DNA of 64,000 bases from an uncultured bacterium (GCA_937900255.1 CALCDZ010000001.1:57988-121987); one strand, 5' to 3'; positions 16,118-54,058 are shown, counted from the stretch's first letter. The notes: generated by a model from the sequence alone, not told the origin. Made by a program: numbers and translations.

Positions 16118-16135
16118 ATACTGGTGGCGTCGTTC

Positions 16136-19230: not shown

Positions 19231-22160
<2,930 letters not shown>

Positions 22161-33441: not shown

Positions 33442-33443
33442 AA

Positions 33444-35041: not shown

Positions 35042-35156
35042 CTGTCCTCTTCCTTTCATGCAATGCCATCGACACTATGTCGATGCGGGAGGAGACTAGC
35101 ACGCGGTTGGCGTTGGCGTCAACCGTGCCTAGGGACTCCAGTGGGAATCGCTACCT

Positions 35157-35204
35157 GGGAGCCATGAGCAGGCGTGTGGGGCGACCCACGTGCTTGGTCA
35201 ATAG
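35157..35204 (+). repeat. 48-bp direct repeat copy 2 (att-like duplicate of the tRNA-Asn 3' end)
   Basis: cctgggagccatgagcaggcgtgtggggcgacccacgtgcttggtcaa, preceded by a degenerate T-arm-like gggaatcgctacc. Confidence 0.75.
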
Positions 35205-35250
35205 ATCATCAAATCATTGGTGGGCTGTTGACTGATAGCAACACGAGTCT

Positions 35251-35847: not shown

Positions 35848-35934
35848 GACCCAAGTACGGCAGTGGCCCACAAATTGACCCCTTCAAAAGCCCTAAGGTG
35901 CCCACAGGAATTGGGCACCAGACCCACCAGCGGA

Positions 35935-36040
35935 GCCAGCAAGACCCATCACGCAAGTGGCGGGTCTTTGCTTTCCGTAAGTCGATTTCCCTTTGGGGGT
36001 GTCGTCTGCTAAAATTGGTCAACATCAGCCAAGGCCGCCT
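35935..36040 (+). repeat. ~105-bp imperfect direct repeat, copy A (immediately upstream of hsdM)
   Basis: gccagcaagacccatcacgcaagtggcgggtctttgctttccgtaagtcgatttccctttgggggtgtcgtctgctaaaattggtcaacatcagccaagg... is about 90% identical to copy B. Confidence 0.75.
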
Positions 36041-36070
36041 CTTTTTTGCTGAAATCAGCGACATACCGCT

Positions 36071-37522
36071 ATGTTCGAGCAAGCCTTCAAGAACATCGAC
36101 GACATCCTCCGCACGGATTCCGGTTCGGCTACGGAGCTGGACTACGTGGAGCAGACTTCCTGGATCATTTTCCTGAAGTACCTGCATGACCTGGAGCTCG
36201 AGAACGCGAAGAAGGCGGAGCTCTCCGGCAAGAAGCACGAGCATACCTTTGAACCGAAGTTCCGCTGGGATACCTGGGCCTGCCCACGGACACCCGACGG
36301 CAAGATCGACCACCATAAAGCGCTCGACGGTAAGGACCTCAAGGAGTTCGTCGACGAAAAGCTTTTCCCGTACCTCAAGAAGTTCAAGAGCGCAGATCCG
36401 GACACCGTCGAATACAAAGTCGGTGAGATCTTCAGCGAACTCAAGAATAAAATCACGAGCGGCTACAAGCTCCGCGAGATTTTGAACATCGTCTGCGATT
36501 TGCACTTCCAGCGTAGCGAGGAGAAGCATGAGCTCTCGCATCTGTACGAGGCCCGAATCGCCAAGATGGGCAACGCGGGACGGAACGGCGGCGAGTACTA
36601 CACGCCTCGCCCCCTCATCCGCACCATCGTGCAAGTGGTCAGGCCTGAAATCGGCGACAAGATCTACGACGGCGCCTGCGGCTCAGCCGGCTTCCTGGTC
36701 GAGGCCTTCAAGTACCTGACGGAAAACAGCGCCAAGCTCTCCACGGCCGAAATGCGCACGCTCCAGACCAAGACCTTCTACGGCAAGGAGATCAAGTCCT
36801 TGGCCTACATCATCGGCGTGATGAACATGATCCTGCACGGGGTCGAGGCGCCGCACATCCGGCACATGGACACGCTGTCCCAGAACGTCAACGACATCCA
36901 GGAGAAGGACCGCTTCGAGGTCATCCTGGCCAACCCGCCGTTCGGCGCCGGTATCGGCAAGGAAGTCCAGCAGAACTTCCCGATCAAGACCGGCGAGACG
37001 GCCTACCTGTTCCTCCAGCACTTCATCAAGAGCCTCAAGGCCGGCGGCCGGGCGGGCATCGTCATCAAGAACACCTTCCTTTCCAACACCGATGACGCCT
37101 CCGTGCGCCTGCGCAGGCACTTGCTTGAGAGCTGCAATCTCCACACCGTGCTGGACTTGCCGGGCGGCGTCTTTTCAGGCGCTGGGGTGAAAACTGTGGT
37201 GCTGTTCTTCGAGAAAGGCGCGCCCACCAAGAAGGTCTGGTACTACCAGCTCAAGCTCGACCGCAATCTCGGCAAGACCAACCCGATCAACGAGAAGGAT
37301 CTGGCGGACTTCGTGAAGCTCCAGAAGACCAAGGCCGATTCCTCCAACGCCTGGTCGGTCAAGGTTTCGGATCTCGATCAGGAAACGCTTGATTTGTCGG
37401 TGAAGAACCCTAAGGGCACCGAGACTGTCGCGCACCGCAGCCCCAAGGACATTCTCAAGGAGATGGTGAAATTGGATGCAGAGAGCGCGAAAGCGTTGGC
37501 TGGTATCAAGGGGTTGCTATGA
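36071..37522 (+). CDS. hsdM: type I restriction-modification system methyltransferase subunit
   Basis: MFEQAFKNIDDILRTDSG... N-terminus. N6-adenine MTase motif NPPFG. AdoMet motif DGACGSAGFL. Confidence 0.9.
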   Translation: MFEQAFKNIDDILRTDSGSATELDYVEQTSWIIFLKYLHDLELENAKKAELSGKKHEHTFEPKFRWDTWACPRTPDGKIDHHKALDGKDLKEFVDEKLFPYLKKFKSADPDTVEYKVGEIFSELKNKITSGYKLREILNIVCDLHFQRSEEKHELSHLYEARIAKMGNAGRNGGEYYTPRPLIRTIVQVVRPEIGDKIYDGACGSAGFLVEAFKYLTENSAKLSTAEMRTLQTKTFYGKEIKSLAYIIGVMNMILHGVEAPHIRHMDTLSQNVNDIQEKDRFEVILANPPFGAGIGKEVQQNFPIKTGETAYLFLQHFIKSLKAGGRAGIVIKNTFLSNTDDASVRLRRHLLESCNLHTVLDLPGGVFSGAGVKTVVLFFEKGAPTKKVWYYQLKLDRNLGKTNPINEKDLADFVKLQKTKADSSNAWSVKVSDLDQETLDLSVKNPKGTETVAHRSPKDILKEMVKLDAESAKALAGIKGLL

Positions 37523-38679
37523 GTGGTGAGTGGCCCACGAGAAAATTGGGCGCTGTTTTGCAGATAATCAATGGTTACGCGTTTGATTCCAAACATTTTG
37601 ATGCCACAAATGGAATGCCGCTGATTAGGATCCGTGATTTAAAATCTGGTACTCACACGGAAACGCGATTTGCAGGGGCATACGACAAAAAATATATAGT
37701 TAAAGCAGGAGATTTGCTCATTGGAATGGATGGTGAGTTTGGTTGCTACGAATGGGGTGGTGAACCCGGCTTATTAAATCAGCGAGTATGCAAGTTACAG
37801 TCGTTTGCAACATCGCTAGCGCCGCGCTTCTTATTTTACGGAGTTAACAGTTACCTTAAGGACATTGAGAATGAGACTGGATATACCACAGTAAAGCACC
37901 TGTCTTCAAAACAAATCCTCGACATCGAATTTCCAATTCCGCCGCTACCGGAGCAACGGCGGCTCATTAAGTTACTCGACCAAGCTTTTTTGGATATCGC
38001 CATCGCCAAGGCGAATGCCGAAAGGAACTTGCAAAATGCGCGCGATCTTTTTGAGAGCCGTCTCAATGAGATTTTTACCAAGCGGGGACTGGGGTGGGTG
38101 GAAAAACGGCTCGATCAGATTGGAACAACACAAACCGGTTCGACTCCGTCGACTTCCGATAAAGAAAACTACGGCAACTTCATTCCTTTTATAAAGCCGG
38201 CAGACTTTAATGAAGATGGCTCATTGAACTATGGCAATGCTGGTCTTACCGAAAAGGGATTATTGAAAGCGCGCAAAGTGCGAGCTGGATCAGTCCTAAT
38301 GGTGTGCATCGGTGCGACTATCGGGAAATGTGGTTATTGTGATCGTGATGTAACCACAAATCAGCAAGTTAACTCACTCACCCCATTCAAAGGTACTTTC
38401 TACAAGCTTGTTTATTATCAGATGCGTACCAGAGACTTTCAAAGACGCATGCTTTTGAGTTCTGCTCAGGCCACGTTGCCGATAATAAACAAGTCTAAGT
38501 GGGAGGCTTTAACAATTTTGCTGCCACAAAAGACGGGAGAACAATCACGTATCGTTATGGAGCTGGCCGGCTTGGACAAAGAAGCAGCCCGCCTCAAGTC
38601 CACCTATCAGAAAAAGCTCCACGCATTGGAAGCGCTAAAGAAATCCTTGCTCAACAAGGCTTTTCGTGGTGAGCTGTAG
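37519..38679 (+). CDS. hsdS: type I restriction-modification system specificity subunit
   Basis: 386 aa with two target-recognition-domain halves separated by conserved helical repeats. ATGA overlap with hsdM. AT-rich relative to hsdM and hsdR. Confidence 0.85.
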   Translation: MSGEWPTRKLGAVLQIINGYAFDSKHFDATNGMPLIRIRDLKSGTHTETRFAGAYDKKYIVKAGDLLIGMDGEFGCYEWGGEPGLLNQRVCKLQSFATSLAPRFLFYGVNSYLKDIENETGYTTVKHLSSKQILDIEFPIPPLPEQRRLIKLLDQAFLDIAIAKANAERNLQNARDLFESRLNEIFTKRGLGWVEKRLDQIGTTQTGSTPSTSDKENYGNFIPFIKPADFNEDGSLNYGNAGLTEKGLLKARKVRAGSVLMVCIGATIGKCGYCDRDVTTNQQVNSLTPFKGTFYKLVYYQMRTRDFQRRMLLSSAQATLPIINKSKWEALTILLPQKTGEQSRIVMELAGLDKEAARLKSTYQKKLHALEALKKSLLNKAFRGEL

Positions 38680-38685
38680 GCGCAT

Positions 38686-40989
38686 ATGAACGAAGCCGAA
38701 ACGCGCGCGGAATACGTCGACCCCAAGCTTAAGGCGAGCGGGTGGGGCGAAATCGAAGGATCGAAGGTCCTGCGCGAGTTTCGGATCACCGAGGGCAAGA
38801 TCCAGACGGGCGGCACGCGCGGGAAGCCGGAGATCGCCGATTATGTGCTGGTCTACAAGAACCGCAAGCTCGCCGTCGTCGAAGCTAAACCGGAAGGGAT
38901 GGAGGCGACGGAGGGCGCAGTCCAGGCCAAGGCCTATGCGGCGAAGCTCGGTTTGGAATACACCTACGCCACCAATGGTCGGGACATCTACGAGGTGTCG
39001 ATGAAGACCGGGCACGAAGGTGCCGTGGGCAGCTTCCCGACGCCTGACGAACTCTGGGCCCGCACCTTCGCCGAGCAGAACGCCTGGCGCGAGAAGTTCG
39101 CCGCCGTCCCGACGGAGGGCGAAAAGGGCCGCCGGTATTATCAGGAGCTGGCCATTGACAACGCGCTCGAGGCCGTGGCCGAGGGCAAGAAGCGGATCCT
39201 GGTGACCATGGCCACCGGTACCGGCAAGACGGCCGTGGCGGCGCAGTTCTCCTGGAAGCTGTTCCAGTCGCGTTGGAACCTCCGGGGCGACGGCGCGCGC
39301 CGGCCGAGGATCCTGTTCCTGGCCGACCGCAACATCCTCGCGGACCAGGCCTTCACGAACGACTTCGCGATCTTCGAGCGCGACGCCCGGGTGCGCATCA
39401 ACCCGCTCGACATCCGCAAGAAGGGCGGCGTGCCGACCGGCGGCAGCGTCTTCTTCACCATCTTCCAGACGTTCATGAGCGGGCCGGGCGATACGCCGTA
39501 CTTCGGCGAGTACCCGCCGGATTTCTTCGACCTCGTCATCATCGACGAGTGCCATCGCGGCGGCGCCAACGACGAGGGCAACTGGCGCGGCATCTTGGAA
39601 TACTTCGCCCCGGCCGTGCAGCTCGGTCTGACGGCGACGCCGAAGCGCAAGGACAACGTGGATACTTATAGATATTTCGGCGAGCCGGTCTACACGTATT
39701 CCCTCAAACAAGGCATCAATGACGGCTTCCTGACGCCGTTCAAGGTCAAGCGCATTCAGACGACGCTGGACGAGTACGTCTACACCTCGGACGACCAGGT
39801 CATCGAGGGCGAAGTCGAGGAGGGCAAGATCTACGAGGAAGTTGACTTCAACAGGATCATCTTCATCAAGGAACGCGAAGCCAAGCGCGTGCGCATCGTG
39901 CTGGACGAGATCGACCAGGACGAGAAGACGATCGTCTTCTGCGCGACCCAGGACCACGCCTTGGCCGTCCGCGACCTGATCAACCAATACAAGGACAGCC
40001 GAGACCCGAATTACTGCGTCCGCGTGACCGCCAACGACGGCGCGCGCGGCGAGCAGTTCCTGCGGGAGTTCCAGGACAACGAGAAGACCATCCCGACCGT
40101 CCTGACCACTTCGCAGAAGCTCTCGACGGGCGTGGACGCCCGCAACGTCCGCAACATCGTGCTGATGCGGCCGGTCAACTCCATGATCGAGTTCAAGCAG
40201 ATCATCGGGCGCGGCACGCGGCTTTTCGACGGCAAGGAGTATTTCACCATCTACGACTTCGTCGACGCCTATCACCACTTTTCGGACCCGGAGTGGGACG
40301 GCGAACCGATCGAGGAAACGGAAGAGAAACCCCGCCACTCCAAGGAGTCCCAAGGAGATCCCAAGAAACCGCGCCAGGTGTCCGAACAGCCGGAAGACCA
40401 GCCGGCGAAAAAGCTTCGGATCAAGTTGCGTGACGGCAAGGAACGCGAGATCCAGCACATGATCTCGACCTCGTTCTGGAGCGCCGACGGCAAACCGCTT
40501 TCGATCCAGGAGTTCATGGACAACCTGTTCGGGGCGATGCCTGAGTTCTTCAGAGACGAGGAGGAGCTCCGCAAGATCTGGTCCGACCCGCGCACGCGCC
40601 AGGCCTTCCTCGATAAGATCGCAGAACTCGGCTACGGCAAGGATGCGCTGGAGACGCTCCAGAAGATGATCGACGCTGAGGACAGTGACCTGTTCGACGT
40701 GCTTTCGTATGTCTCGTTCCTGACGCCGCCGATCACGCGCGAGGAGCGCGTCAGCCACGCGAAGGATCGCATCTACCAAGGCCTCGGCGAACTCCAGCAG
40801 GATTTCCTCGGGTTCGTCCTCGGGAAGTACGAGGAGAGCGGGGTCGACGAGCTCGGCGAGCACCAACTGCCGATCCTGCTGAACCTGAAATACCAGGCCA
40901 TCGCTGACGCCGAGCAGGCGCTCGGGAATGTCGGCACAATCCGCACGCTCTTCCTGGATCTGCAGAGGAAGCTGTATGCTAAGATGTGA
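38686..40989 (+). CDS. hsdR: type I restriction enzyme R subunit (shorter than usual at 767 aa)
   Basis: N-terminal MNEAETRAEYVDPKLKASGW, helicase motifs ATGTGKT and DECHRG, then a C-terminal helical region. Confidence 0.85.
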   Translation: MNEAETRAEYVDPKLKASGWGEIEGSKVLREFRITEGKIQTGGTRGKPEIADYVLVYKNRKLAVVEAKPEGMEATEGAVQAKAYAAKLGLEYTYATNGRDIYEVSMKTGHEGAVGSFPTPDELWARTFAEQNAWREKFAAVPTEGEKGRRYYQELAIDNALEAVAEGKKRILVTMATGTGKTAVAAQFSWKLFQSRWNLRGDGARRPRILFLADRNILADQAFTNDFAIFERDARVRINPLDIRKKGGVPTGGSVFFTIFQTFMSGPGDTPYFGEYPPDFFDLVIIDECHRGGANDEGNWRGILEYFAPAVQLGLTATPKRKDNVDTYRYFGEPVYTYSLKQGINDGFLTPFKVKRIQTTLDEYVYTSDDQVIEGEVEEGKIYEEVDFNRIIFIKEREAKRVRIVLDEIDQDEKTIVFCATQDHALAVRDLINQYKDSRDPNYCVRVTANDGARGEQFLREFQDNEKTIPTVLTTSQKLSTGVDARNVRNIVLMRPVNSMIEFKQIIGRGTRLFDGKEYFTIYDFVDAYHHFSDPEWDGEPIEETEEKPRHSKESQGDPKKPRQVSEQPEDQPAKKLRIKLRDGKEREIQHMISTSFWSADGKPLSIQEFMDNLFGAMPEFFRDEEELRKIWSDPRTRQAFLDKIAELGYGKDALETLQKMIDAEDSDLFDVLSYVSFLTPPITREERVSHAKDRIYQGLGELQQDFLGFVLGKYEESGVDELGEHQLPILLNLKYQAIADAEQALGNVGTIRTLFLDLQRKLYAKM

Positions 40990-41120
40990 CGACGTGGGTA
41001 CGATCGTCGATTGCTGATTCGCCGGAATCAATAAACCGAATCCGCCCCTGTGAGGCGGGGGAGATGGACGTACTCGGCCTGTCTCCGTATCGAGGTTTCA
41101 ACGTCCTCCACGACGTGGAA

Positions 41121-41226
41121 GCCAGCAAGACACATCACGCAAGTGGTGTGTTTTGCTTTCCATAAGTCGATTTCCCTTTGGGGGTGTCGTCTGCTAAAAT
41201 TAGTCGACATCAGCCAAGACGCATTT
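41121..41226 (+). repeat. ~105-bp imperfect direct repeat, copy B (immediately downstream of hsdR)
   Basis: gccagcaagacacatcacgcaagtggtgtgttttgctttccataagtcgatttccctttgggggtgtcgtctgctaaaattagtcgacatcagccaagac... Confidence 0.75.
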
Positions 41227-41240: not shown

Positions 41241-41705
41241 GTGAAGGTTCATGGTCAACCTTATGAAACGGTGCCGTATATTCACATGACCAAAAGCCCC
41301 CTCAAAAATATACCTGCCGATTTTCGTAAAGCACTTGCGGCTGCGCCCAAAGCCAGGGAGCAATGGGAATCGTTGACGGCGATCGCGCGGAGGGATTTCA
41401 TCAGTTGGATCGCATCGGCCAAGCAAGAGAAGACGCATGCGCGTCGGATCGAGGTGGCGTGTTCGAAGCTTGCCGCCGGGCAGCGTCGTCCTTGCTGCTA
41501 CGCGGTCGTGCCGATGGATCTTTATAAGGCGCTTGCCACGGCGCCGAAGGCCAGGACGCAGTGGAGCGGCCTCACGCCGGATGAGCGCCGGGATCTTGTC
41601 GGTTGGATCGGGATATCCGGGAAACCGGGGGCGAGGGTGGGCCGAATCGCCGAAGCTTGCGCGATGCTCGCAGCCAGGAAAAGACGTTTTAAACCAGCGA
41701 AATAG
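41241..41705 (+). CDS. YdeI/OmpD-associated-family-like protein with an internal duplication
   Basis: Two ~55-aa repeats (ALAAAPKAREQWESLTAIARRDFISWIASAK / ALATAPKARTQWSGLTPDERRDLVGWIGISGK). GTG start at 41241; an alternative ATG is at 41286. Confidence 0.5.
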   Translation: MKVHGQPYETVPYIHMTKSPLKNIPADFRKALAAAPKAREQWESLTAIARRDFISWIASAKQEKTHARRIEVACSKLAAGQRRPCCYAVVPMDLYKALATAPKARTQWSGLTPDERRDLVGWIGISGKPGARVGRIAEACAMLAARKRRFKPAK

Positions 41706-41779
41706 CTTGCGAACGTTCCCGCCACACGGCATGGCACCGAACGTTTGATATTTCGGCCTCTTTCGGGCAAAATAGGGCC

Positions 41780-43219
41780 ATGTCGAACGGCGTGGCCAAG
41801 AACATCTTTCACCTGCTGACCTCCTCGGTCCTCCAAAAGGGCATCGCTTTCGTGTACTTCGCGCTCATCGCCCGTTGGGCCGGCGTCGCGCATACGGGGG
41901 CGTATTTCTTCGCCCTCTCCTGGACGTTGATGTTCACGACGATCACCGACATGGGCCTCACGCCCGTCCTGATCCGCGAATCGGCCAAAGACCACGCCAA
42001 TACCGAGAAGTTCCTGAACCAGACGCTTTCGCTCAAGCTTCCGCTCACGGCCGTGGCGGTACTCTCCGCCATCGTCGGCGCCTGGCTGTTCCATATCGAA
42101 CCGGTCACGCGTACGCTCGTCATGCTCTCCACCATCGTCATTTCGCTGGATGCCGTCTCCCTTACATTCTACGGCGTCCTGCGCGGGCACCATGTCCTGA
42201 AGCACGAAGGCCTCGGGCTGGTCATCGGCCAGTCCGTCACCATGCTCATCGGCCTCGCATCCTTGAAGCTCCACATGCCGCTCTGGGTGCTGGTCGTCGC
42301 GCTCATCGCCGGCAGTTCCTGGAACGCGCTGGCGTCCTGGTGGGTCGTGACCCGCAAGCTCCGTATCCGCGTCCGTCCGAGCTGGGACCGGAACTTCGCC
42401 CTGACGATCCTGCGTACCGCCTTCCCGTTCGCGCTCGCGGGCTTTTTCGTGAAGATCTACACCAGCGCCGACGCCGTGCTGCTCACGCACTTCCATGGAG
42501 AGGCGGCGGCCGGCCTTTACAGCGTCCCGTATAAGCTGACCTTCGCCTTCCAGTTCGTGCCAATGACGTTCACGGCGGCGTTCTACCCGGCCATGAGCCG
42601 CGCCTTCGCGACGGACAAGAAGGCGCTCGGCGATCTCCTGTACCAGGCGCTGCGGTCGCTGACGCTGATCGTCGCCCCGATCGTCTCCGGCATCGCCGCC
42701 CTGGCGCCGCAATTGGTGCAATCCGTTTTCGGCAAGGAGTACCTGCCGTCCGTCCTTGCGGTCGAGACGCTTATTTTCGTACTCGTCCCGATCTTCCTGG
42801 ATTTCCCGATCGGCTCGCTCCTGAACGCCTCCGACCGCCAGATGACGCAGACGAAACTGATGGCGGCTGCGACCGCCGTCTCGCTCGCGCTCAACCTCGC
42901 CCTCATCCGGGATTACGGCTTGGTCGGGGTCGTCGTCGCATCGATCGTCAGCCACATGGTCCTGATCGTCGGCGGCCTCATCGTCATCGGGAAGTTCCTG
43001 GAATGGCCGGCGGCCCGGTTCGCCGGGGCTGCCGTCCGCACGGGTCTGGCGGCCGGCGCGATGGCGCTCGTCGTGACGTTCACGAAGTCGCTCCTGCCTC
43101 TTCCGGCCGTGGTGTTCCTCGGTGCGCTCAGTTACCCGGCCGCTGCCTTCGCGTTCGGCGCGATCGGCGTGAAGGATCTCAAGATGCTGGCCGCGGGGGT
43201 GCTGAAGCCAAGCGCATGA
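41780..43219 (+). CDS. polysaccharide/oligosaccharide flippase (Wzx / MOP superfamily)
   Basis: 479 aa with about 12-14 TM helices. The N-terminus has the typical polysaccharide-biosynthesis-protein layout. Confidence 0.75.
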   Translation: MSNGVAKNIFHLLTSSVLQKGIAFVYFALIARWAGVAHTGAYFFALSWTLMFTTITDMGLTPVLIRESAKDHANTEKFLNQTLSLKLPLTAVAVLSAIVGAWLFHIEPVTRTLVMLSTIVISLDAVSLTFYGVLRGHHVLKHEGLGLVIGQSVTMLIGLASLKLHMPLWVLVVALIAGSSWNALASWWVVTRKLRIRVRPSWDRNFALTILRTAFPFALAGFFVKIYTSADAVLLTHFHGEAAAGLYSVPYKLTFAFQFVPMTFTAAFYPAMSRAFATDKKALGDLLYQALRSLTLIVAPIVSGIAALAPQLVQSVFGKEYLPSVLAVETLIFVLVPIFLDFPIGSLLNASDRQMTQTKLMAAATAVSLALNLALIRDYGLVGVVVASIVSHMVLIVGGLIVIGKFLEWPAARFAGAAVRTGLAAGAMALVVTFTKSLLPLPAVVFLGALSYPAAAFAFGAIGVKDLKMLAAGVLKPSA

Positions 43220-44253
43220 GACTGCTTCTCGCCACCTACGAATATCCGCCGGACAAAGGCGGCATCGCCAGTTACCTGGGCGGTCTGTTCGGTGCCATGC
43301 CCGAGCATGATGTCAGGGTCCTGAAATTGAGAATACCGGCCAGGCGGCTCGGCTGGCTCCTGCAGCTGCCGAAGCTTTGGATCGCTTCGAGATGGGCGGA
43401 CGCCGTGGTCGTCTCGCATGTGCTGCCGCTCGGCACCGCCGCGGCCTTGATCGGAAAACCGTACGCCGTCATCGTGCACGGGCTTGATTTGCGTGCGGCC
43501 GCCGCGCAGCCGCGGAAAAGACCGACGGCCGCCCGCGTGCTGAAGGCCGCAAAATTGATCGTCGCCAACAGCCGCGCGACCGCCGATGAGCTGGCGGGTT
43601 TCGGAGTGGATCCCGCATCCGCGCTCGTCGTGACGCCCTGTCCGGACCCGGAACTGGAACGGAAAGGGCTGGGCATCGATGCACGAGAGATATTCGATCT
43701 CAGCGGAAAGAAAGTACTGCTCTCGGTCGGACGTCTCGTCGGGCGCAAAGGCTTCGATCGGCTCGTCCGCCTGCTTCCGGAACTCCGCAAGGCATGCGAG
43801 GATGTGGTGCTCGTCATCGCGGGGGCGGGGCCGGAGGAGGGGAGGCTCCGCAGCGAAGCCGCCTTGTCCGGCATGGAACCCTACGTGCGCTTCGTCATCG
43901 GTCCCGACCAGGAGACGCTCGCGGCTTTGTATCGCGCCGCCGACGTCTTCGCGCTCGCGGTGCGCGCGTCGAAGGGTGACGTCGAAGGGTTCGGGATCGT
44001 CTTCCTGGAAGCGGCGCTCTTCGGCGTACCGTCCGTCGGTTCGCGGGTCGGAGGCGTGCCGGAAGCGATCGTGGATGGGCGCACCGGCCTCCTGACGGAT
44101 CCGGATTCCGAAAGCGATCTCCATGAGAAACTCCGGCGCTTGCTGAACGATGCGGACGGCGCCACGCGCCTTGGTGCGGCCGCCCGCGCCCGCGCCCTTG
44201 AAGATTTCCGGTGGCCGGAGCGGGCAGCTCGGTTGATCGAAAGGCTTTCATGA
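43216..44253 (+). CDS. glycosyltransferase family 4
   Basis: MRLLLATYEYPPDKGGIASY... plus the C-terminal EGFGIVFLEA...G.P GT4 motif. ATGA overlap with the flippase. Confidence 0.8.
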   Translation: MRLLLATYEYPPDKGGIASYLGGLFGAMPEHDVRVLKLRIPARRLGWLLQLPKLWIASRWADAVVVSHVLPLGTAAALIGKPYAVIVHGLDLRAAAAQPRKRPTAARVLKAAKLIVANSRATADELAGFGVDPASALVVTPCPDPELERKGLGIDAREIFDLSGKKVLLSVGRLVGRKGFDRLVRLLPELRKACEDVVLVIAGAGPEEGRLRSEAALSGMEPYVRFVIGPDQETLAALYRAADVFALAVRASKGDVEGFGIVFLEAALFGVPSVGSRVGGVPEAIVDGRTGLLTDPDSESDLHEKLRRLLNDADGATRLGAAARARALEDFRWPERAARLIERLS

Positions 44254-44954
44254 GACGCATTTCCGTCATCATCCCGTGCTACAACCACGCGTCTTCCATC
44301 GGGAAGTGCCTTGGGAGCGTTTTTGCGCAGACGTATCCGGAGATCGAGGTCATCGTGGTGGATGACGGGTCGACGGACGATCTCGAAACCGCCCTCAAAC
44401 CGTTCCAAGGCCGTTTCCGATTCATCCGGCAAGAGAACCGCGGCGGGCCCGCGGCGCGCAATCGCGGATTCAGAGAGAGCTCGGGCGCATTCGTCATCTT
44501 CTGCGACGCGGACATCATCTGGACCAAGGATGCGCTTTCCAGCATGATCGCGGCGCTCGATGCGCATCCGGAGGCCGCCTATGCCTATGCCTCCTTCAGG
44601 TTCGGTTGGAAGAGCTTCCGGGGGGGGTCGTTCGACTCGGAGCGCTTGAAGCGTCATAACTACATCCATACCGGTTCGCTCATCCGCAGGGAGAAGTTCC
44701 CGGGTTTCGACGAATCGCTGCGCCGCTTCCAGGATTGGGACCTATGGCTTACGATGTCCGAGAGGGGAGACGCCGGCGTCTGGATCCCGCGCGAACTCTG
44801 CCGGGTGATGACGAGGCGCGGCGGCATCTCGAGCTGGTTGCCGAAGGTCGCCTACCGCATCCCATGGGCGCGCCTGGGCTGGAAGCCCGCCCGCGTGCGC
44901 GCGTACGAGGAAGCGGCCGCCGTCATCAGGAAGAAGCATCATCTTTCGCCATGA
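44250..44954 (+). CDS. glycosyltransferase family 2
   Basis: ISVIIPCYNHA...VVDDGSTDD DxD-type GT2 N-terminus. ATGA overlap. Confidence 0.8.
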   Translation: MRRISVIIPCYNHASSIGKCLGSVFAQTYPEIEVIVVDDGSTDDLETALKPFQGRFRFIRQENRGGPAARNRGFRESSGAFVIFCDADIIWTKDALSSMIAALDAHPEAAYAYASFRFGWKSFRGGSFDSERLKRHNYIHTGSLIRREKFPGFDESLRRFQDWDLWLTMSERGDAGVWIPRELCRVMTRRGGISSWLPKVAYRIPWARLGWKPARVRAYEEAAAVIRKKHHLSP

Positions 44955-45844
44955 GCCGTCCCGCCGATCTCAGCATCATCACGGTCAATTGGAAGGTCGC
45001 CGATCTGGTCGGCGAGCTTTTGGGATCGATCCAAGCGAACCGTGAAGGCTTGTCGATCGAGATTTTCGTCGTCGACAACGATTCCGGCGACCGCATCGAG
45101 GACGTCGTCGCCGGGTTCCGCTCCCGTTCCGACATCCCCGTCACGTTCATCCGTAACGGACGGAACCTCGGTTTCGCCGCCGCCAACAATCAGGCGATCC
45201 GTCGCTCTTCCGGGCGGGTAGTCGCGCTCTTGAATCCGGACGCGCGCGTCATGAAAGGCGCCTTGAAGCGGATGGTCGAATGGATGGACGCGCACCCCCG
45301 CGTCGGCATCGCTGGTCCGCGGCTCCTCGAGACCGACGGATCGACCCAACGCTCCGTCCGCCGGGACCCGTGGTTGTCCGACCAGATCCTCATCCTGCTC
45401 AAGACGCATCATCTTTGGCCGGCCGCTCCGCCGTTCCGACGCTACTTGGCCGACGGTTTCGATTACGGCAAGGAACAGGACGTCGAGCAGCTGATGGGCG
45501 CGGCGCTCTTCATCCGTCGGGAGGTCTTCACCGGCATCGGTCTGCTCGACGAGTCGTTCTTCATCTGGTTCGAGGAGGTCGACTTCTGCAAGCGGGCTCG
45601 TGATGCCGGTTGGCGGGTGTCATACGTGCCTTCCGCCGCCGTCGTTCATCATGGGGGGGCCAGTTTCGCCAAGGCGATGACGCTCAGGAAGCAGCGGTAT
45701 TTTTCCGGCAGCATGCGAACGTACTTCAAGAAGCACCGCGGCGCATGGACCGGCGCGGTGCTGGCCTTGCCGGTCCTGCTCGGTCTTGCGGCGGCTGCCA
45801 TGCTTTCGCTATGGAACAACCTGCAAAAAAAAACGAAGGCCTGA
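44951..45844 (+). CDS. glycosyltransferase family 2
   Basis: LSIITVNWKVADL...FVVDNDSGD. ATGA overlap with the preceding GT2. Confidence 0.75.
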   Translation: MSRPADLSIITVNWKVADLVGELLGSIQANREGLSIEIFVVDNDSGDRIEDVVAGFRSRSDIPVTFIRNGRNLGFAAANNQAIRRSSGRVVALLNPDARVMKGALKRMVEWMDAHPRVGIAGPRLLETDGSTQRSVRRDPWLSDQILILLKTHHLWPAAPPFRRYLADGFDYGKEQDVEQLMGAALFIRREVFTGIGLLDESFFIWFEEVDFCKRARDAGWRVSYVPSAAVVHHGGASFAKAMTLRKQRYFSGSMRTYFKKHRGAWTGAVLALPVLLGLAAAAMLSLWNNLQKKTKA

Positions 45845-47361
45845 ACGCCTCAAGGGCCGTTTTCCTGCTCTGCGTGGCGGCTGAGCTGCTTTCTTTCCTC
45901 ACGTTCTACCGTCCCTGGCTCGCGGCCCCGTTCCTGTACGCGCTGGGTCTCGGAGCGATCGCATTGGCGTTCACGGACCTAAGGAAACTCTTTTCGGTCG
46001 TCGTGGTGGAGGCGATCATCGGCAGTCATGGGCGGCTCTTCTCCGCCGAAGTCGCAGGTTTTTCGGTCTCCGTCCGCATGGTCCTCTTCGCCGTCCTAGT
46101 CATCGGATGGGCGCTTCATACGGTTCATGGGCGTTCGCGCATCCTGCATTTCCGGCATGTCGGGATAGGCGCCCCGCTGACGCTGCTGCTTTCGGCGCTG
46201 GCGCTTGCCGCCGCACGCGGGTTGGAGCGCGGGGTGGGCGCGGCCTTTTCCGACGCGAACGGGTACGCCTTCCTTCTCATGCTGCCGATAGGCCTCGACC
46301 TGTTCGCTGGGCGCGAACCTTTCGCGAAGCTGCTCGGCGTCATGGCCGGTGCCGCGGCCTGGCTGGCGGCCAAGAGCCTGATCCTGCTCTATCTTTTTTC
46401 GCACGACTTCGGCCCGTTCCTGAAAGACCTGTTCAGATGGCAGAGAACGTACGGCCTGAGCGAGATGACGCGCCTTGCGGGGGGTGCCGTCCGTGTCTTC
46501 GCCGCTTCCGACCTCTTCCTGATCCCGGCCGTGGCCCTCGGAATCCTTCTCTCCTGGAAATTCCGGCGCCGTTGGACCTTTGCCTGGACCATCCTCGTCA
46601 CGGCCGCCTTCCTTCTCAGCCTTTCCAGAAGTTTCTGGCTCGGCATCGCGTTTTCCGCGGCGATCATGCTGCCCGCGCTCGTGAAACATGAAACCAGGCC
46701 GCTCCGGGAGATCGGGCGGCTGTCCGGGAGCGCTTTTGTCGCCCTGGCGATCGGAACGGCGCTGCTTGCCGGGCTGCTGTTCCTCCCCTCACCGAAGCGT
46801 CTTCAGGATGCCGGGGCATGGGGTGCATACGGCGGGCGCTTCCTGAACGCCTCCGACGCAGCCGTTTCCAGCCGTTGGAACATGATCGCGCCGCTCCGCC
46901 AGGCGATCTCCGTTTCACCGGTCTTCGGATCCGGTTTTGGATCGGTCATCAGCTATCAGTCGGACGATCCGCGCATGCATGACCTCTACCCGGGCGGGCG
47001 CGTCACGACCGGAGCGATCGAATGGCAGTACTTGGAAATCTGGCTGAAGACGGGACTCTTCGGCCTCTTCGCCGTCCTGTGGCTCTGGTGGCGCATCGCG
47101 ATATTCCTCTGGAAATCGATCGGGGGGGCATCACGGGAAACGGGCCGGCTCATGGCGTCAGGAGCGATGCTGTCGTTCCTCGCTTTCGTGATCGCCAACG
47201 TCTTCACCCCTTACATCAATCATCCGCTCGGATGGATGTATCTGGCACTCGTCGTCGTCGGGGCGCATGCCTACGGCGGTCACGAGGCTCCGGAGCGCGA
47301 ATTTCCGGCTAGTCCAATTCCGCGTTGGCGAAGTCAGGATAGCCGTTCAGGAAACTCTTGA
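45811..47361 (+). CDS. O-antigen ligase-like (Wzy_C) membrane protein; candidate O-oligosaccharyltransferase
   Basis: Multi-TM protein with a large loop, a Wzy_C-type layout. The ATG at 45811 overlaps the GT2 3' end; the ORF-track start at 45610 is probably too far upstream. The start is uncertain. Confidence 0.6.
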   Translation: MEQPAKKNEGLNASRAVFLLCVAAELLSFLTFYRPWLAAPFLYALGLGAIALAFTDLRKLFSVVVVEAIIGSHGRLFSAEVAGFSVSVRMVLFAVLVIGWALHTVHGRSRILHFRHVGIGAPLTLLLSALALAAARGLERGVGAAFSDANGYAFLLMLPIGLDLFAGREPFAKLLGVMAGAAAWLAAKSLILLYLFSHDFGPFLKDLFRWQRTYGLSEMTRLAGGAVRVFAASDLFLIPAVALGILLSWKFRRRWTFAWTILVTAAFLLSLSRSFWLGIAFSAAIMLPALVKHETRPLREIGRLSGSAFVALAIGTALLAGLLFLPSPKRLQDAGAWGAYGGRFLNASDAAVSSRWNMIAPLRQAISVSPVFGSGFGSVISYQSDDPRMHDLYPGGRVTTGAIEWQYLEIWLKTGLFGLFAVLWLWWRIAIFLWKSIGGASRETGRLMASGAMLSFLAFVIANVFTPYINHPLGWMYLALVVVGAHAYGGHEAPEREFPASPIPRWRSQDSRSGNS

Positions 47362-48765: not shown

Positions 48766-49185
48766 TTAGCCTAAAAAAACGTTCATGTCAAGCTGCTTGC
48801 CCGGACGTTTTTTCTTCGGGCCTCTCTTTTTTTCCGGCTTCGGGGAAGCGGCTTCCTCTTTTCCCGACTTCGAGAGCCACATGAAGAACTTGCGGGGGCT
48901 CCGGACGTCGGCGTGATCGGACTTCACCGATGAGAACAAGGCGCGCGCCTGGGCGATTCCCAGCCGCCTGACGATCCCGAGATAGAGCCCGAACTTCGCC
49001 CGTTCGGCGAAATAGGCGCTGATTTCCGCCGCGAGCGCGTGCTCGCCGCTATGGATGCGCCGCTCTTTCCTGGCGTCCGGCGACTCGAGTCCTGGCAACT
49101 GGCCTTTCTTTCCAGGCGGCGGATCTCCCGCTTGCCGCGCCGGGCGCCGTTTGATGACGCCGCCGATGCCTTCCATGGCGGTCAT
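48766..49185 (-). CDS. hypothetical basic protein
   Basis: The ATG at 49185 overlaps the upstream stop in ATGA fashion; the ORF-track start at 49308 would overlap the upstream gene by 126 nt. Lys/Pro-rich C-terminus. Confidence 0.4.
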   Translation of the reverse strand: MTAMEGIGGVIKRRPARQAGDPPPGKKGQLPGLESPDARKERRIHSGEHALAAEISAYFAERAKFGLYLGIVRRLGIAQARALFSSVKSDHADVRSPRKFFMWLSKSGKEEAASPKPEKKRGPKKKRPGKQLDMNVFLG

Positions 49186-49976
49186 GCGAAGCGATAATGG
49201 ATCGCCGCGCAGCCGATGCCGAACGGGCTTTCGTAGCTGAGAAGTTCCGGCACGGCGTCGATCTTGTCGAGGATGCCGGAGAGGATGGTCAGGACGGGCA
49301 ATCCGCACTGCGCGGCCTTTTCGGCCAGCTCGGTCTCGAAGGAAAGCAGCGCCGAGAACTTCCTTTCGCTGAAGATGTCCAGGATCTTCTGGTCGAACTT
49401 CTTCCCGAAGGGCGAGTACCCGGCCGGAGCGGAACGGGTCAGTCGATGCGAGAGGTCCGCCGAAGCGATGACCGCGACGCGCCGGTCGGTGTGCAGAAGG
49501 ACTTCCTGCACGGCTTGTCCGAACTCGAACTGCGCTTTGGGCGGCAGGGAAGCTGGAGTGATCGGGACGATCTGCATGGATGGCAAGTGCGCCGTCAGGT
49601 AGCTGAGCGGTACCGCGACGCCATAATCGAGTCCCGGTTCGGACCGGAGCATGAGCGGGATACCGCGGTCTTCCAGGTGCTCCTGCAAGGCGCTGGCCAG
49701 CCGCATGTCCGCGCGGAAGGTCATGTCGGAATCCATGATCCCGAACTCCTTGAGGTCGCAGATGTACCGTTCGTTCAGGTCGATCGTGAAATGCCCGTCA
49801 GCAGCCGCGCCATGCGGGGAAATCAGGAGGATCGTGTCCGGGTGCGCGGCGTACAGTTCCTGCTCGAGACGGCGCATGGCCGTCACGGTCTTGCGGAGCT
49901 TCTTCAAGTGCTCCTTGCCGATCGACGGCAGGAGGACGGGGGAATGCGGCGTGACGGCGGCGAAGACGATCGGCAT
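49182..49976 (-). CDS. Memo/LigB-like class III extradiol-dioxygenase-fold protein
   Basis: MPIVFAAVTPHSPVL...ISPHGAAADG...ASADLSHRL resembles the Memo1/AmmeMemoRadiSam-B and LigB family. Confidence 0.6.
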   Translation of the reverse strand: MPIVFAAVTPHSPVLLPSIGKEHLKKLRKTVTAMRRLEQELYAAHPDTILLISPHGAAADGHFTIDLNERYICDLKEFGIMDSDMTFRADMRLASALQEHLEDRGIPLMLRSEPGLDYGVAVPLSYLTAHLPSMQIVPITPASLPPKAQFEFGQAVQEVLLHTDRRVAVIASADLSHRLTRSAPAGYSPFGKKFDQKILDIFSERKFSALLSFETELAEKAAQCGLPVLTILSGILDKIDAVPELLSYESPFGIGCAAIHYRFA

Positions 49977-49981
49977 GGCGA

Positions 49982-51391
49982 TCAGTTGGAGGCGAGCGTC
50001 GCCTGGATCGATGCATCGCTGGGCGCCGAAGGGGCCGTGACGGCCGGGCCGAGCGGATGCAAGAGCAGCGCATCAGCCGTGGTCCATACGACGCGCTTCC
50101 ACGAGTACCCGAGCTGCTCGAAGGCCTGGCCCGAGACGATCGGGCGGCGTTGTCCGTTCGAAATCACGTAGACCGTCCGATCGGCTCCGGAGGCGGTGAC
50201 GAGATCGCCGTCCTTGAAGCGGATCGGGTCAGTCGATTCGTATTTTGCGAGCGTCGAAGGCGAGACCTTCGTAGGCTTCTTTCCGGGATAGTCCGCTTTC
50301 ATGATGGCATCGTCGACGACAGGGGATTTCCGGCCGTTCTCCACGAAATAGACGGCTCCAGTCTTCGAGTCCTTCAGGAAGGCGCCGGTCGGATAAGCGC
50401 TTTTCAGGGTGATCATGTCGCCATCCTCGTAGCCGTCCAGGTCGGCCGGGTCGACATCATCGATCTCCTCCGGATTGAAGCCGATCGAACGGAAGACCGT
50501 CATTGACTGGATCGGCCTCTTCCGGTCGCCGACGAGGAGGTAGACCGTTCCGGCGGGAACACGCACCAAAGAGTACTCCGCGAACCTGATAGGCGCACCT
50601 TCCTGGTAAGCGGCCAGGACCGCATCCGAGACCTGGATGATCTTCCCGGCATCGACACGGGTGTGCAGGGCGCTTTTGTTTTCAAAGCGCCTCTTCAAGC
50701 CGCCTTGAATCAGGTACACCTTGCCGTCGGGGCCGGAAAGCGCCGAGCCGTCCGGATAGTCGAGCGCGAACCAATCGGACCAGATGGACTTCAGGTTCTG
50801 GTTGCCATGGAGATGCGGCGTATACGTATAGAGGATGGCCGTGGCCGTGTTCGCCGGCGTGACATCGCGCCCGTCGATCGTGGCCTGCACGCCCGGGAAA
50901 AAGCCGAAGGTGCGTTTCGCGTTCATCCGCTCCTGGTCGTAAATGAAACGGACGAAGGCGGCCGCATTCACGATCTGCGAGGTGAACCCGCGATATCGTT
51001 GCCAGCTCGGGTCGTCGCATGTCGAACCGTCCGGTCGGCCATATCCGGCCGCCCAGTCGATCTGGCAACGGCTTGGATCGCGGTCTTCCACGAGGCTTTG
51101 TTCCTTCTGGATGAGGGCCAGCAGGAAACGCGGGTTCACCCCCGATGCCTTGCCATAATAGTCGATGATGTACCCGGGCGATCTCTGGGAACCGTCCAGG
51201 TCGGGGAAGGTCATCTTCGCCAATGCGCCTCCATGCGCTTCCAGGAACTTCTGCGAAAAACCGGCCGGCACGTCCGTGTCGGTCAAGTCCTGGTCGGAGA
51301 GGACATAGCCTGGATCCGTATCGGCGGCGCGGGCCGGCAACGCTCCGGCCAGCAGGCAGATTTGGAGCAAGATCAGCGGGAATTTCTTCAT
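49982..51391 (-). CDS. secreted protein with four tandem copies of a ~55-aa G-x-V-Y-(L/F)-(I/V)-x-x-G-x-(K/R)-R-P-(I/V) repeat
   Basis: Signal peptide MKKFPLILLQICLLAGALPARA. Repeats GKVYLIQGGLKRRF / GTVYLLVGDRKRPI / GAVYFVENGRKSPV / RTVYVISNGQRRPI. Confidence 0.65.
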   Translation of the reverse strand: MKKFPLILLQICLLAGALPARAADTDPGYVLSDQDLTDTDVPAGFSQKFLEAHGGALAKMTFPDLDGSQRSPGYIIDYYGKASGVNPRFLLALIQKEQSLVEDRDPSRCQIDWAAGYGRPDGSTCDDPSWQRYRGFTSQIVNAAAFVRFIYDQERMNAKRTFGFFPGVQATIDGRDVTPANTATAILYTYTPHLHGNQNLKSIWSDWFALDYPDGSALSGPDGKVYLIQGGLKRRFENKSALHTRVDAGKIIQVSDAVLAAYQEGAPIRFAEYSLVRVPAGTVYLLVGDRKRPIQSMTVFRSIGFNPEEIDDVDPADLDGYEDGDMITLKSAYPTGAFLKDSKTGAVYFVENGRKSPVVDDAIMKADYPGKKPTKVSPSTLAKYESTDPIRFKDGDLVTASGADRTVYVISNGQRRPIVSGQAFEQLGYSWKRVVWTTADALLLHPLGPAVTAPSAPSDASIQATLASN

Positions 51392-51446
51392 ATCTGCCGA
51401 TAGGATAGCATGACGTCAGGTCTCCTGACAATCGTGCGCGGTCATC

Positions 51447-52655
51447 ATGCCGACGACCGCGTTGCCCTTCCCGTCCATCCCGGATACAATCTCTCATATG
51501 CTGATTTCCCGCGCTCATTTCCGCACGATCGGCCTCGTGGGGCTGAACTTGATCGTCGCTGTTGCCGTACACTCCGCTTGGACGGCATGGCTGCCCGCAG
51601 CTGACGCTGCCCAAAAGCCGTCCTCGACAGCCGTCCTCGACAGCGAGGAACAGTTGATTCGCATGGTCGCGAAAGCATCGCCGGCCGTCGTTTCCATCCT
51701 GATAGAAAAGCGGCAGCAGACCGCCCCCGGAGAGGAAGGCGGTTCGGGATCATCGACGGACGGCCTCGCCGAGGTCGGTCGCGGGACCGGTTTCCTGGTC
51801 GATCCGGGCGGCATGATCGTGACGAATCGCCACGTGGCAGGAGACCGGGCGGCGGCGTACACGGTCTTCTTGACGGATGGGCGCTCCTTCAAGGCGGATG
51901 TCGTCGACATCGACCCCGTCAATGACCTGGCCCTGCTCAAGATCGATGCGAACGGCCTGCCGACCGTGCCGCTCGCGGCGGCGGACGACGTACGGATCGG
52001 GCAGACGACCGTCGCGATCGGGAACGCCTTGGGAAAATACGCGAACACCGTCACGCGCGGCATCCTTTCCGGCCTCGGCAGGGACCTCGACGCCACCGAC
52101 GGCCTCACCGGGACGTCCGAACGGCTTGAAGAGCTCCTGCAGACCGACGCCGCTATCAACGCCGGAAATTCCGGTGGGCCGCTCCTGAACAGTCGCGGTG
52201 AAGTCATCGGCGTCGATACGGCGGTGGAGAACGGAGCGCATGGCCTCGGATTCGCGATTCCCGTTTCCGAAGTCCGGAAGGTGCTCGGCTCGTACGCCCG
52301 GTACGGAGCCATCGCCCGGCCTCGTTTCGGAGTGCGGTACGTGGCGATCACGCCCGAACTGGTCCGGGAGCGCGCGCTCCCGTATACATACGGCGCACTG
52401 GTCGACGCGGATGACCCGAACGACGCTTCCGTCCTGCCCGGCAGCCCCGCGTATGCGGCGGGGGTACGCCAAGGCGACATCATCCTGGAAGTCGACGGCA
52501 AGAGGCTGGAAGGGAAGCGCACGCTCGCCAAGGTCATCCAATCGAAAGAAGTCGGTGACGCGGTGACGCTGAAGATCGCGCGCGGCGGCGAGCTCCTGGC
52601 GCTTTCGGCGCAGCTCGATGCCTTTCCGCCGTACGCGCCCGCGCAGACCCGGTAA
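51447..52655 (+). CDS. htrA: HtrA/DegP-family serine protease with PDZ domain
   Basis: Catalytic triad context TNRHV, DLALLKI, GNSGGPLLN, plus a C-terminal PDZ. An alternative start is at 51498. Confidence 0.85.
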   Translation: MPTTALPFPSIPDTISHMLISRAHFRTIGLVGLNLIVAVAVHSAWTAWLPAADAAQKPSSTAVLDSEEQLIRMVAKASPAVVSILIEKRQQTAPGEEGGSGSSTDGLAEVGRGTGFLVDPGGMIVTNRHVAGDRAAAYTVFLTDGRSFKADVVDIDPVNDLALLKIDANGLPTVPLAAADDVRIGQTTVAIGNALGKYANTVTRGILSGLGRDLDATDGLTGTSERLEELLQTDAAINAGNSGGPLLNSRGEVIGVDTAVENGAHGLGFAIPVSEVRKVLGSYARYGAIARPRFGVRYVAITPELVRERALPYTYGALVDADDPNDASVLPGSPAYAAGVRQGDIILEVDGKRLEGKRTLAKVIQSKEVGDAVTLKIARGGELLALSAQLDAFPPYAPAQTR

Positions 52656-52686
52656 GAAACGCCTGACTCATCCGTCTCAACAAGGC

Positions 52687-54015
52687 ATGACACCTATGCG
52701 GAACCTCTCGCGTTTCTCCATCGCCTTCTTCTTCCTCATTTCCATCTCCGGCGCTGCCGGGGTCGCGCACGCGGAAGAGCCGTATTCCGATTCTCTCGGC
52801 CTTTCCGTCCCTCTTGCGGCACCTGCCGCGGAAACCTCCGCATCGGACCAGCCCGCGACCTCGGATGCCGGTAACAGGGCGGCGCTGCCTTCGGAGCCGC
52901 CGTTGATTTCCGCGATCCAAAGGGCCCGCACCCTTTTGCGGGAACGGATCGACACCGATGTCGAGCGGCGGACGAAGCCTGAGGTGGTGAGCGGGTACGA
53001 CGTCTGGGTGAACGTGACCCTGGCCGTATGGGATGCCCGCACTGACGGGATTTCCTTGATCGAAGCGCGCAAGAACGGCACGAAACTGAAGTTCGAAGGC
53101 CTGGAAGACCCCGGCATCAGGGTGCGTTTCAATAACGGCGTCAATACGCAGTTCGCGGTCGACGACGGCGACAAGGTCGTCGTAGCCATCCGTTACCCGA
53201 TCTTCAAGGACGTCACCGTAAAAAAGAAGCATCCTCGGTATGAGCTGCAGGATGTCGTGTACGCGCCGTATTCTCCCGCATTGCGGCAGCCGGAAGTCGT
53301 TTCCTATGGAAGGGGCACCTTGAAAAGCTACATCACCCAGGCGTTCGACGCATATCGGGCCGCAGGCATCCGTTCGCGTGCGTTCCCCGACAAGCTGATG
53401 GCCGACGTGGTCGACCCACAGCTCGTCGAATCGATCGCCCTCATCGAGCACTTGAACGTGGGAGCGCTGGACGGACAGAACGCCCAGGCGGCCCTGGAGT
53501 CCGTGTACGTCACCGTGGCGGCCAACCAGGAAGACGCGTTCGATTATTCGCGTTCTCCCGCCGGAGCGCTCGGGATGGTCCAGTTCATCCCGAGCACCTA
53601 TGCACTCATGGCCAAACGCGCGGAGCTCGGCCTCATCAAGGACTTCACGGCCGGCATGTCCGATCCGGTGAACGCCATCAAGGCGGAGATCGCCTACCTC
53701 GATGCGGAACTGGCCTCGATGCCGCTCTCCGTCAAAGACCTGTACTACGTGGATAACGACCGGGTGAAGGAGTATCTCGCGGCCGGTTACAATGCCGGCG
53801 ATACGCGGGTCAAACGCGCCATCGCCTTGTGGGGCGACGCCTGGTCCGAGACGCATGAAGAGGAGATCGCCACGCTCGCCAAGAAGAAAGGGACGCGCAG
53901 CGCGGCCGTGAAGGCGATGAAGAACGCGACCTTGCGTGCGGAGACCATCGGCTACGTGCGGAAGATGCGCCAGGCGCTCAAGATGCTGAGACCGCCGGAA
54001 CTTCCCATGACCTGA
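52687..54015 (+). CDS. secreted SLT (lytic transglycosylase)-like domain protein
   Basis: Signal peptide MTPMRNLSRFSIAFFFLISISGAAGVAHA. SLT-like SPAGALGMVQFIPSTYA, but the usual catalytic E-S is replaced by D-Y-S. Confidence 0.55.
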   Translation: MTPMRNLSRFSIAFFFLISISGAAGVAHAEEPYSDSLGLSVPLAAPAAETSASDQPATSDAGNRAALPSEPPLISAIQRARTLLRERIDTDVERRTKPEVVSGYDVWVNVTLAVWDARTDGISLIEARKNGTKLKFEGLEDPGIRVRFNNGVNTQFAVDDGDKVVVAIRYPIFKDVTVKKKHPRYELQDVVYAPYSPALRQPEVVSYGRGTLKSYITQAFDAYRAAGIRSRAFPDKLMADVVDPQLVESIALIEHLNVGALDGQNAQAALESVYVTVAANQEDAFDYSRSPAGALGMVQFIPSTYALMAKRAELGLIKDFTAGMSDPVNAIKAEIAYLDAELASMPLSVKDLYYVDNDRVKEYLAAGYNAGDTRVKRAIALWGDAWSETHEEEIATLAKKKGTRSAAVKAMKNATLRAETIGYVRKMRQALKMLRPPELPMT

Positions 54016-54058
54016 CGCGCGCCGGACGTGATAGGCCCGTGTGATACACTGTGGAAAT

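Follow-up and report, generated by a model that had tools for sequence, protein, structure and literature searches.

Five consecutive genes in a stretch of DNA from an uncultured bacterium (GCA_937900255.1, CALCDZ010000001.1:57988-121987; the whole 64-kb stretch is referred to as the window) encode a Wzx-type flippase, three glycosyltransferases and a membrane protein with a Wzy_C domain, and the question raised by this locus is to which acceptor the glycan made by such a gene set is finally attached. The genes, here called G1 to G5 in their order on the + strand, fill positions 41780-47361. An earlier note on this DNA had seen in them a candidate protein O-glycosylation system directed at pilins. 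The results presented below favour another reading, to which we assign a probability of roughly 0.45: the locus would be the local copy of a conserved Wzx-dependent envelope glycoconjugate operon of the Patescibacteria, also known as the candidate phyla radiation (CPR), in which G5 ligates the glycan en bloc to an acceptor other than lipopolysaccharide (LPS). The most likely acceptors are the surface proteins as a whole or a glycolipid of the membrane; lipid A-core would not be among them, the host belonging to a lineage established to lack LPS synthesis. The operon would accordingly serve housekeeping glycosylation of the envelope, and be neither a pilin-dedicated TfpO/PglL module nor a strain-variable O-antigen or capsule locus. 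What appears to be new, judging from sequence comparison and a structure model, is a CPR-wide glycan operon of the core genome that pairs a Wzx flippase with a divergent terminal enzyme of the WaaL fold.

A conserved operon in the Patescibacteria

Homologues of G5 were found in Patescibacteria/Parcubacteria, including Magasanik-, Uhr-, Falkow-, Komeili- and Buchananbacteria, Paceibacter and Minisyncoccota, and the host itself is assigned to the Patescibacteria (CPR) from its sequence. Bacteria of this group are not known to have an outer membrane or LPS synthesis. Relatives of G5 are present in at least 556 species representatives. A search with a profile of the G5 family, which took in 1.84 billion cluster representatives, returned 1007 clusters (50% identity) at E <= 1e-30 and 3184 at E <= 0.001, and the family appears to be large and essentially restricted to the Patescibacteria.

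The neighbours of the Wzy_C gene were surveyed in 82 related loci, taking all open reading frames (ORFs) within 8 kb, and gene order was counted on the 59 loci whose upstream sequence reached 5.5 kb or more. A Wzx gene, a glycosyltransferase gene of family GT4 and at least one of family GT2 precede the Wzy_C gene on its strand and in a constant order in 49/59 loci, and the colinearity holds where identity to G5 is only ~30%. Since this order recurs in dozens of distant genomes, the clustering goes far beyond chance. The architectures observed were G1-G2-G3-G4 (22 loci), G1-G2-G3 (21 loci) and G1-G2-G4 (5 loci). A homologue of G4 accompanies the Wzx and/or GT4 gene in 29 of the 59 loci and is missing beside them in 22, and G4 is thus an optional member of the cassette; nine loci carry an extra GT4-like gene. 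Ten distant loci, among them L084 (at 7494-7961), have a gene of the DUF192 family (PF02643) between the first GT2 gene (GT2a, the counterpart of G3) and the Wzy_C gene, and this gene may be an accessory component of the pathway. A PQ-loop gene found 5' of the Wzx gene in close relatives was considered as a further cassette member and rejected, being present in three loci only.

The partnership between GT2a and the Wzy_C protein goes beyond gene order. In at least four distinct representatives (P0018, P0290, P0303 and P0309) the two form a single polypeptide, with GT2a joined in frame ahead of the Wzy_C part, which argues for a tight functional coupling of the two; the fusions are 726-762 aa long and come from several distinct lineages, the case in locus L005 lying at 5277-7478. 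The second GT2 gene (GT2b, the counterpart of G4) is absent from L005 and L006.

The position of the cassette in the chromosome is equally regular. Close relatives, the complete 1.17-Mb genome CP129476.1 among them, have the five genes between a ribosomal-protein operon (rpsM-rpsK-rpsD-rpoA-rplQ-rplM-rpsI) and fmt-def, and the usual flanks are S13, S11, S4, RpoA, L17, L13 and S9 upstream and fmt, def, priA and a LigB-like gene downstream, with fmt convergent in 31 of 62 loci. Unbiased clustering of the ORFs around all 82 loci likewise returned housekeeping neighbours, GreA, LysS, PrfA, MreB and ClpB also being among them. No gene for a Wzz-type polysaccharide co-polymerase (PCP), a tyrosine-kinase modulator, an LCP protein or a second Wzy-like protein was recurrent within 8 kb of these loci.

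The cassette genes

The flippase, the GT4, the two GT2 enzymes and the Wzy_C protein named in the earlier note are each borne out by the gene calls and by a Pfam scan that covered ~45 proteins of the window (Table 1). The same note described the genes as ATGA-coupled throughout. This holds for the G1/G2, G2/G3 and G3/G4 junctions, as read from the sequence, while G4 and G5 overlap by 34 nt instead, and a comparable overlap of 28 nt is kept in relatives. The protein called for G5 matches a database entry (P0001, from a 143.6-kb contig) without any difference. The last 53 nt of G5 are shared with the 3' end of the convergent fmt gene, behind which comes def. The GC content of the cassette is 63-65%, equal to that of the window and the genome.

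In addition to its main Pfam match, G1 scores 70 bits on Polysacc_synt_3, and its weak NCBIfam matches are Wzx_EPS and TuaB. The lipid II flippase MurJ was considered as an identity for G1 and rejected, as the MurJ model gave 24.7 bits, under its cut-off. The closest relatives of solved structure are the mannosyltransferase PimB' and MshA for G2, and chondroitin synthase and GalT1 for G3; they are generic and give no sugar specificity. For G4, no solved relative was found at E <= 1e-5. A promoter-like site 5' of G1 could serve the operon, and is weak evidence on its own since the scan gave two such sites where chance alone would give 1.1. A tRNA-Val called by ARAGORN at 42628-42701 lies inside the flippase ORF, in a high-GC coding context, and is almost certainly a false positive.

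The terminal enzyme

G5 was compared with its family in domain scans of 25 members and in a conservation analysis of 81 sequences. The Wzy_C match spans residues 261-422 of G5, and the model (PF04932) is matched by 22 of the 25 members at E <= 0.1 (best E 3e-14); some family members (P0290, P0300) miss it at E <= 0.001. None of the 25 matches PglL_A (PF15864) or Wzy_C_2 (PF11846) at E <= 0.1. The RfaL model PRK15487 is touched by three members (E 0.008, far under cut-off), and G5 has no NCBIfam match, polymerase models included. Searched against all PDB chains, the G5 profile found nothing at the sequence level, even at E <= 10. The AlphaFold2 (AF2) model of G5 (predicted local distance difference test, pLDDT, 86.7; predicted template modelling score, pTM, 0.86) retrieved WaaL as the only Foldseek match (7tpg_B, E 6.9e-5), and by this model G5 has the WaaL fold. 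A peptidoglycan polymerase of the SEDS family was also considered and rejected, WaaL fitting much better than FtsW/RodA.

Alignment of the family profile with the single E. coli WaaL and WzyE sequences in hhalign was not significant. R215, R265, R288 and H338 are invariant in a profile of 23 enterobacterial WaaL sequences, and a weak profile-profile alignment pairs R273 of G5 with R215, and R355 with R288. The catalytic WaaL histidine H338, in the motif HLHN ahead of the helix that comes after the large loop, lands in a gap of this alignment; residues 396-420 of G5 contain no His, the corresponding segment is free of His in all 81 members, and these members show no conserved His column between positions 300 and 445. 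The residues conserved in all 81 sequences are G74, R89, E218, R228, R273, R355, G373, G375, D386, E404, G415, Y468, N470, H471, P472 and G474. Among these, E404 stands where the WaaL His would be, and H471 is the His of a C-terminal PYxNHPLG motif. The DSSP helices of the AF2 model, read with the positive-inside rule, suggest 14 transmembrane (TM) helices with both termini inside and with the invariant polar residues all in outer loops. The active face of G5 would lie outside the membrane and carry an invariant active-site set unlike that of the classical ligases.

A model of the pathway

These observations suggest a model in which the glycan is started on undecaprenyl phosphate by a priming phosphoglycosyltransferase, presumably encoded elsewhere because there is none in the window or among the recurrent neighbours. 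G2, G3 and, optionally, G4, which are glycosyltransferases by family and would act on as yet presumed substrates, would lengthen the glycan on the cytoplasmic face. G1, in keeping with its Wzx family, would flip the oligosaccharide linked to undecaprenyl diphosphate (Und-PP), and G5 may hold the diphosphate through R273 and R355 and transfer the whole glycan in one step to a conserved acceptor. Two indirect arguments favour en-bloc ligation: no co-polymerase or attachment gene recurs within 8 kb of the cassette, and the set of glycosyltransferases varies while the outer motifs of G5 are invariant. Such variation in the glycosyltransferases, combined with fixed motifs in the terminal enzyme, fits a constant acceptor and a relaxed donor.

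Much of bacterial diversity falls within the Patescibacteria, which live attached to other microbes and whose surface chemistry is almost unknown. Its conservation at one place in the core genome of at least 556 species representatives makes the operon a strong candidate for one of the basic components of the envelope throughout this lineage. As a distinct branch of the WaaL/Wzy_C proteins with different invariant residues, G5 could also inform the mechanism of this enzyme class and yield a new glycoengineering tool. The finding is one of a well-defined family and operon with a predicted function, and the cassette, being small, self-contained and conserved, is open to direct testing.

Alternative readings

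Several observations weigh against ligation by G5. Fold and sequence cannot separate a ligase from an O-oligosaccharyltransferase or a polymerase, and the alignment to the WaaL profile is statistically weak (probability 2.8%, E 0.016), with no PglL or Wzy structure among the fold matches. Wzy polymerases rely on arginines and are not known to rely on a His, and by analogy the missing His at the ligase position would suit a polymerase at least equally well. A conserved glycan might also be expected to conserve its polymerase, as with the enterobacterial WzyE. The absence of co-polymerase and LCP genes covers the 8 kb around the 82 loci. A priming transferase of the WecA, WbaP or PglC type was not found in the window or the related loci, and no description of the cassette was found in the literature on Patescibacteria, Parcubacteria, CPR, Saccharibacteria and Southlakia.

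The leading competitor is a Wzy-type polymerase: G5 would polymerise repeat units, and the operon would make a 'CPR common antigen' that proteins encoded elsewhere attach or release. We regard this as somewhat unlikely and still as a serious contender. A Wzx flippase, several glycosyltransferases and one Wzy_C protein are the classical Wzx/Wzy gene set, the Wzy_C domain is also carried by the monoderm polymerases TuaE and Cap5J, and G5 combines the missing His with a series of retained outer-face arginines (R89, R212, R228, R273, R343, R355 and R388). The conservation of the cassette together with its glycosyltransferases resembles that of the enterobacterial common antigen (ECA) cluster, kept with WzyE across the Enterobacterales. 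The survey nevertheless returned none of the partners of such a polymerase (Wzz/PCP, tyrosine-kinase modulator or LCP) as a recurrent gene within its 8-kb range, and polymerases track the structure of the repeat unit, which makes it unusual that the glycosyltransferase set shifts between lineages while the motifs of G5 stay fixed. The comparison with E. coli WzyE in hhalign was empty, and no NCBIfam polymerase model was matched.

In the next alternative, G5 transfers the glycan to proteins. The cassette would be a phylum-wide system for general protein O-glycosylation, decorating pilins, S-layer proteins and the adhesins of episymbiosis, and G5 would represent a new class of O-oligosaccharyltransferase that uses E404 and the His of the NHPLG motif in place of the canonical His. 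This bolder proposal is, in our judgement, rather unlikely. If it were true, the replacement of GT2b by a pilin-FISUMP adhesin in one related locus (L071) would be a direct pairing of enzyme and substrate.

It is improbable that G5 is a PglL/TfpO-type O-oligosaccharyltransferase with the bacterium's own type IV pilins as main targets, the reading raised as a candidate in the earlier note. The same window does contain a type IV pilus cluster, in which two major pilins are encoded in tandem, and pilin O-glycosylation has been predicted, not shown, for the pili of Saccharibacteria, where glycosylation is called 'unexplored' (2024, PMC11623550). The pili are, however, separated from the cassette by 21.7 kb with unrelated genes and two inserted islands, and the pilus argument therefore rests on remote co-location in a small genome. 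The neighbourhood, said to be dominated by pilus and surface proteins, was overstated in that respect, with housekeeping genes and islands filling the interval. Homologues of PilB, PilC, PilM and PilD were absent within 8 kb of the cassette in all 82 related loci, and close relatives have ribosomal genes at that position, with fmt/def on the other side. TfpO genes usually adjoin pilA, and G5 does not. The proposed classification of G5 by PglL-specific models came out negative, the family matching generic Wzy_C only and lacking a His at the canonical position.

The single pilin-like ORF of the survey (1/82 loci) is that of L071, at 6948-8009, where a 353-aa protein with an N_methyl signal, a Ser/Thr/Pro-rich linker and a Fib_succ_major domain occupies the GT2b slot inside the operon. 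Its start overlaps the stop of GT2a, in translational coupling, and its end lies 3 nt before the start of the Wzy_C gene. This case counts in favour of a pilin target and keeps the glycosylation of proteins, even of pilins, in play without establishing it; cassettes in general do not show such a gene. Of the role first suggested for the locus, protein O-glycosylation thus stays a live possibility, while the specific link to pilins and the membership of the PglL group are not supported.

A strain-variable capsule or exopolysaccharide (EPS) island acquired horizontally, or a defence-associated glycosylation island, is very improbable. G2 does score 35.7 bits on the GT4-conflict model (PF20706), far below its generic GT4 matches, and a type I restriction-modification island lies directly upstream. 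This island has a GC content of 53-59% and its own ~100-bp repeats, whereas the GC of the cassette is typical of the genome, and the synteny of the cassette in a core-genome setting across the phylum already contradicts the idea. An LPS O-antigen locus, with G5 as the WaaL that joins O-antigen to lipid A-core, can practically be dismissed despite the structural match to WaaL, the NCBI name of the relatives ('O-antigen ligase family protein') and the three members touched by the RfaL model, given a host group established to have neither outer membrane nor LPS synthesis, a pilus cluster without secretin, no lpx, waa or kds gene among the ~45 window proteins scanned, the absent WaaL His and the lack of any sequence match to solved structures at E <= 10. 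The earlier note's leaning towards a role outside LPS is strengthened by the same host, pilus and gene-content evidence.

Comparison with known systems

WaaL (Cupriavidus metallidurans, 7TPG/7TPJ; E. coli) and G5 have distinctly different sequences and, nevertheless, a common Pfam Wzy_C core, counterparts for R215/R288 in R273/R355, an extracytoplasmic active face and, presumably, an Und-PP-linked donor. Their identity is 13-14%, and G5 is longer by ~100 residues and two helices. It has no His at the HLHN segment and has invariants of its own (E404, D386, R89, E218, R228 and PYxNHPLG), and its host would have no lipid A-core acceptor.

PglL of Neisseria and TfpO/PilO of P. aeruginosa are likewise Wzy_C membrane enzymes, which place Und-PP-linked glycans on Ser/Thr residues of proteins, pilins among them, and their loci typically hold a flippase and glycosyltransferases without a co-polymerase, as the CPR cassette does. 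The G5 family differs in lacking PglL_A/Wzy_C_2 and the canonical His, and in having a pilin neighbour in 1/82 loci.

Closer functional precedents for a ligase may be found in monoderm bacteria. WsfB/WsaB (Paenibacillus alvei, Geobacillus stearothermophilus) are Wzy_C O-oligosaccharyltransferases of S-layers, WsfB moving an Und-PP-linked glycan onto protein, and TacL of Streptococcus pneumoniae is a Wzy_C lipoteichoic-acid ligase that moves an Und-PP-linked glycan onto a glycolipid anchor. In function, WsfB and TacL seem the closest such precedents. TacL systems have a separate polymerase, TarP, and none was seen near the CPR cassette; S-layer glycosylation clusters carry a priming transferase, which the cassette is without.

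The ECA cluster (wzxE-wecF-wzyE in the order seen here) resembles the CPR cassette as a lineage-wide set of flippase and glycosyltransferases for one common glycan. It differs in needing the co-polymerase WzzE, and its WzyE has no detectable profile similarity to G5. The lfg cluster for general O-glycosylation in the Bacteroidota is lineage-wide and makes a common glycan as well, and has no Wzy_C gene inside. With four to five genes the CPR cassette is smaller than the ECA and lfg clusters, and it sits among translation genes.

Surroundings of the cassette

Table 1. Coordinates of the cassette and of neighbouring features in the window, counted from its first nucleotide.
Feature	Position	Strand	Basis or content
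Candidate promoter TTGATA-17-CAAAAT, possibly of the operon	41745-41773	+	Consensus scan; 7 nt 5' of the G1 start codon
G1, Wzx-type (MOP/Polysacc_synt) flippase, 479 aa	41780-43219	+	Pfam Polysacc_synt, 111 bits
G2, GT4 (retaining, GT-B fold) glycosyltransferase, 345 aa	43216-44253	+	Pfam Glycos_transf_1, 123 bits
G3 (GT2a), soluble GT2 glycosyltransferase, 234 aa	44250-44954	+	Pfam Glycos_transf_2, 124 bits
G4 (GT2b), GT2 glycosyltransferase, 297 aa, C-terminal hydrophobic helix	44951-45844	+	Pfam Glycos_transf_2, 81 bits
G5, Wzy_C membrane protein, 516 aa, ~14 predicted TM helices	45811-47361	+	Pfam Wzy_C, 35.4 bits (cut-off 31.7)
Type IV pilus cluster	8321-20071		PilM, PilO, PilB, response regulator, PilC, two major pilins, PilD, minor pilins
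hsdM, type I restriction-modification	36071-37522		GC of hsdM-hsdS-hsdR 53-59%
hsdS, type I restriction-modification	37519-38679		
hsdR, type I restriction-modification	38686-40989		
LigB/Memo-like protein	49182-49976		
469-aa protein	49982-51391		No significant Pfam match
HtrA			Within 49182-56668
SLT transglycosylase			Within 49182-56668
875-aa G8/CEMIP beta-helix protein	54041-56668		

No secretin gene was found in the pilus cluster. Its two major pilin genes, at 15066-15548 and 15587-16060, are near-identical and in tandem, and the response-regulator gene (12970-13422) stands between pilB and pilC. Directly 5' of the cluster lies a gene for a 1474-aa protein (3943-8367) with no Pfam match. 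The interval from the pili to the cassette holds ligA, gatA, lgt, a histidine kinase, dnaG, rpoD, a Big_5 surface protein and the two islands.

The first of these regions lies at a tRNA-Asn gene (33330-33404). A second copy of the gene's 3' end, together with the sequence that follows it, occurs 1760 nt downstream (33385-33470 versus 35145-35230, 83% identity). Between the two copies stand a 198-aa ORF and the gene of an Amidase_6 protein (34361-35059), and the region is probably a small element that has integrated here, or what is left of one. The restriction-modification genes are bracketed by ~100-bp direct repeats (35934-36033 and 41120-41218, 89-96% identical), and the region 35934-41218 looks like an inserted cassette; relatives carry the ribosomal-protein operon where this island stands here. 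Between the island and the flippase gene, a small ORF (41241-41705) encodes two OmdA/YdeI repeats (PF13376, 114 bits), and this ORF was not found upstream of the cassette in relatives. On the downstream side, the gene block at 49182-56668 is kept alongside the cassette in many relatives.

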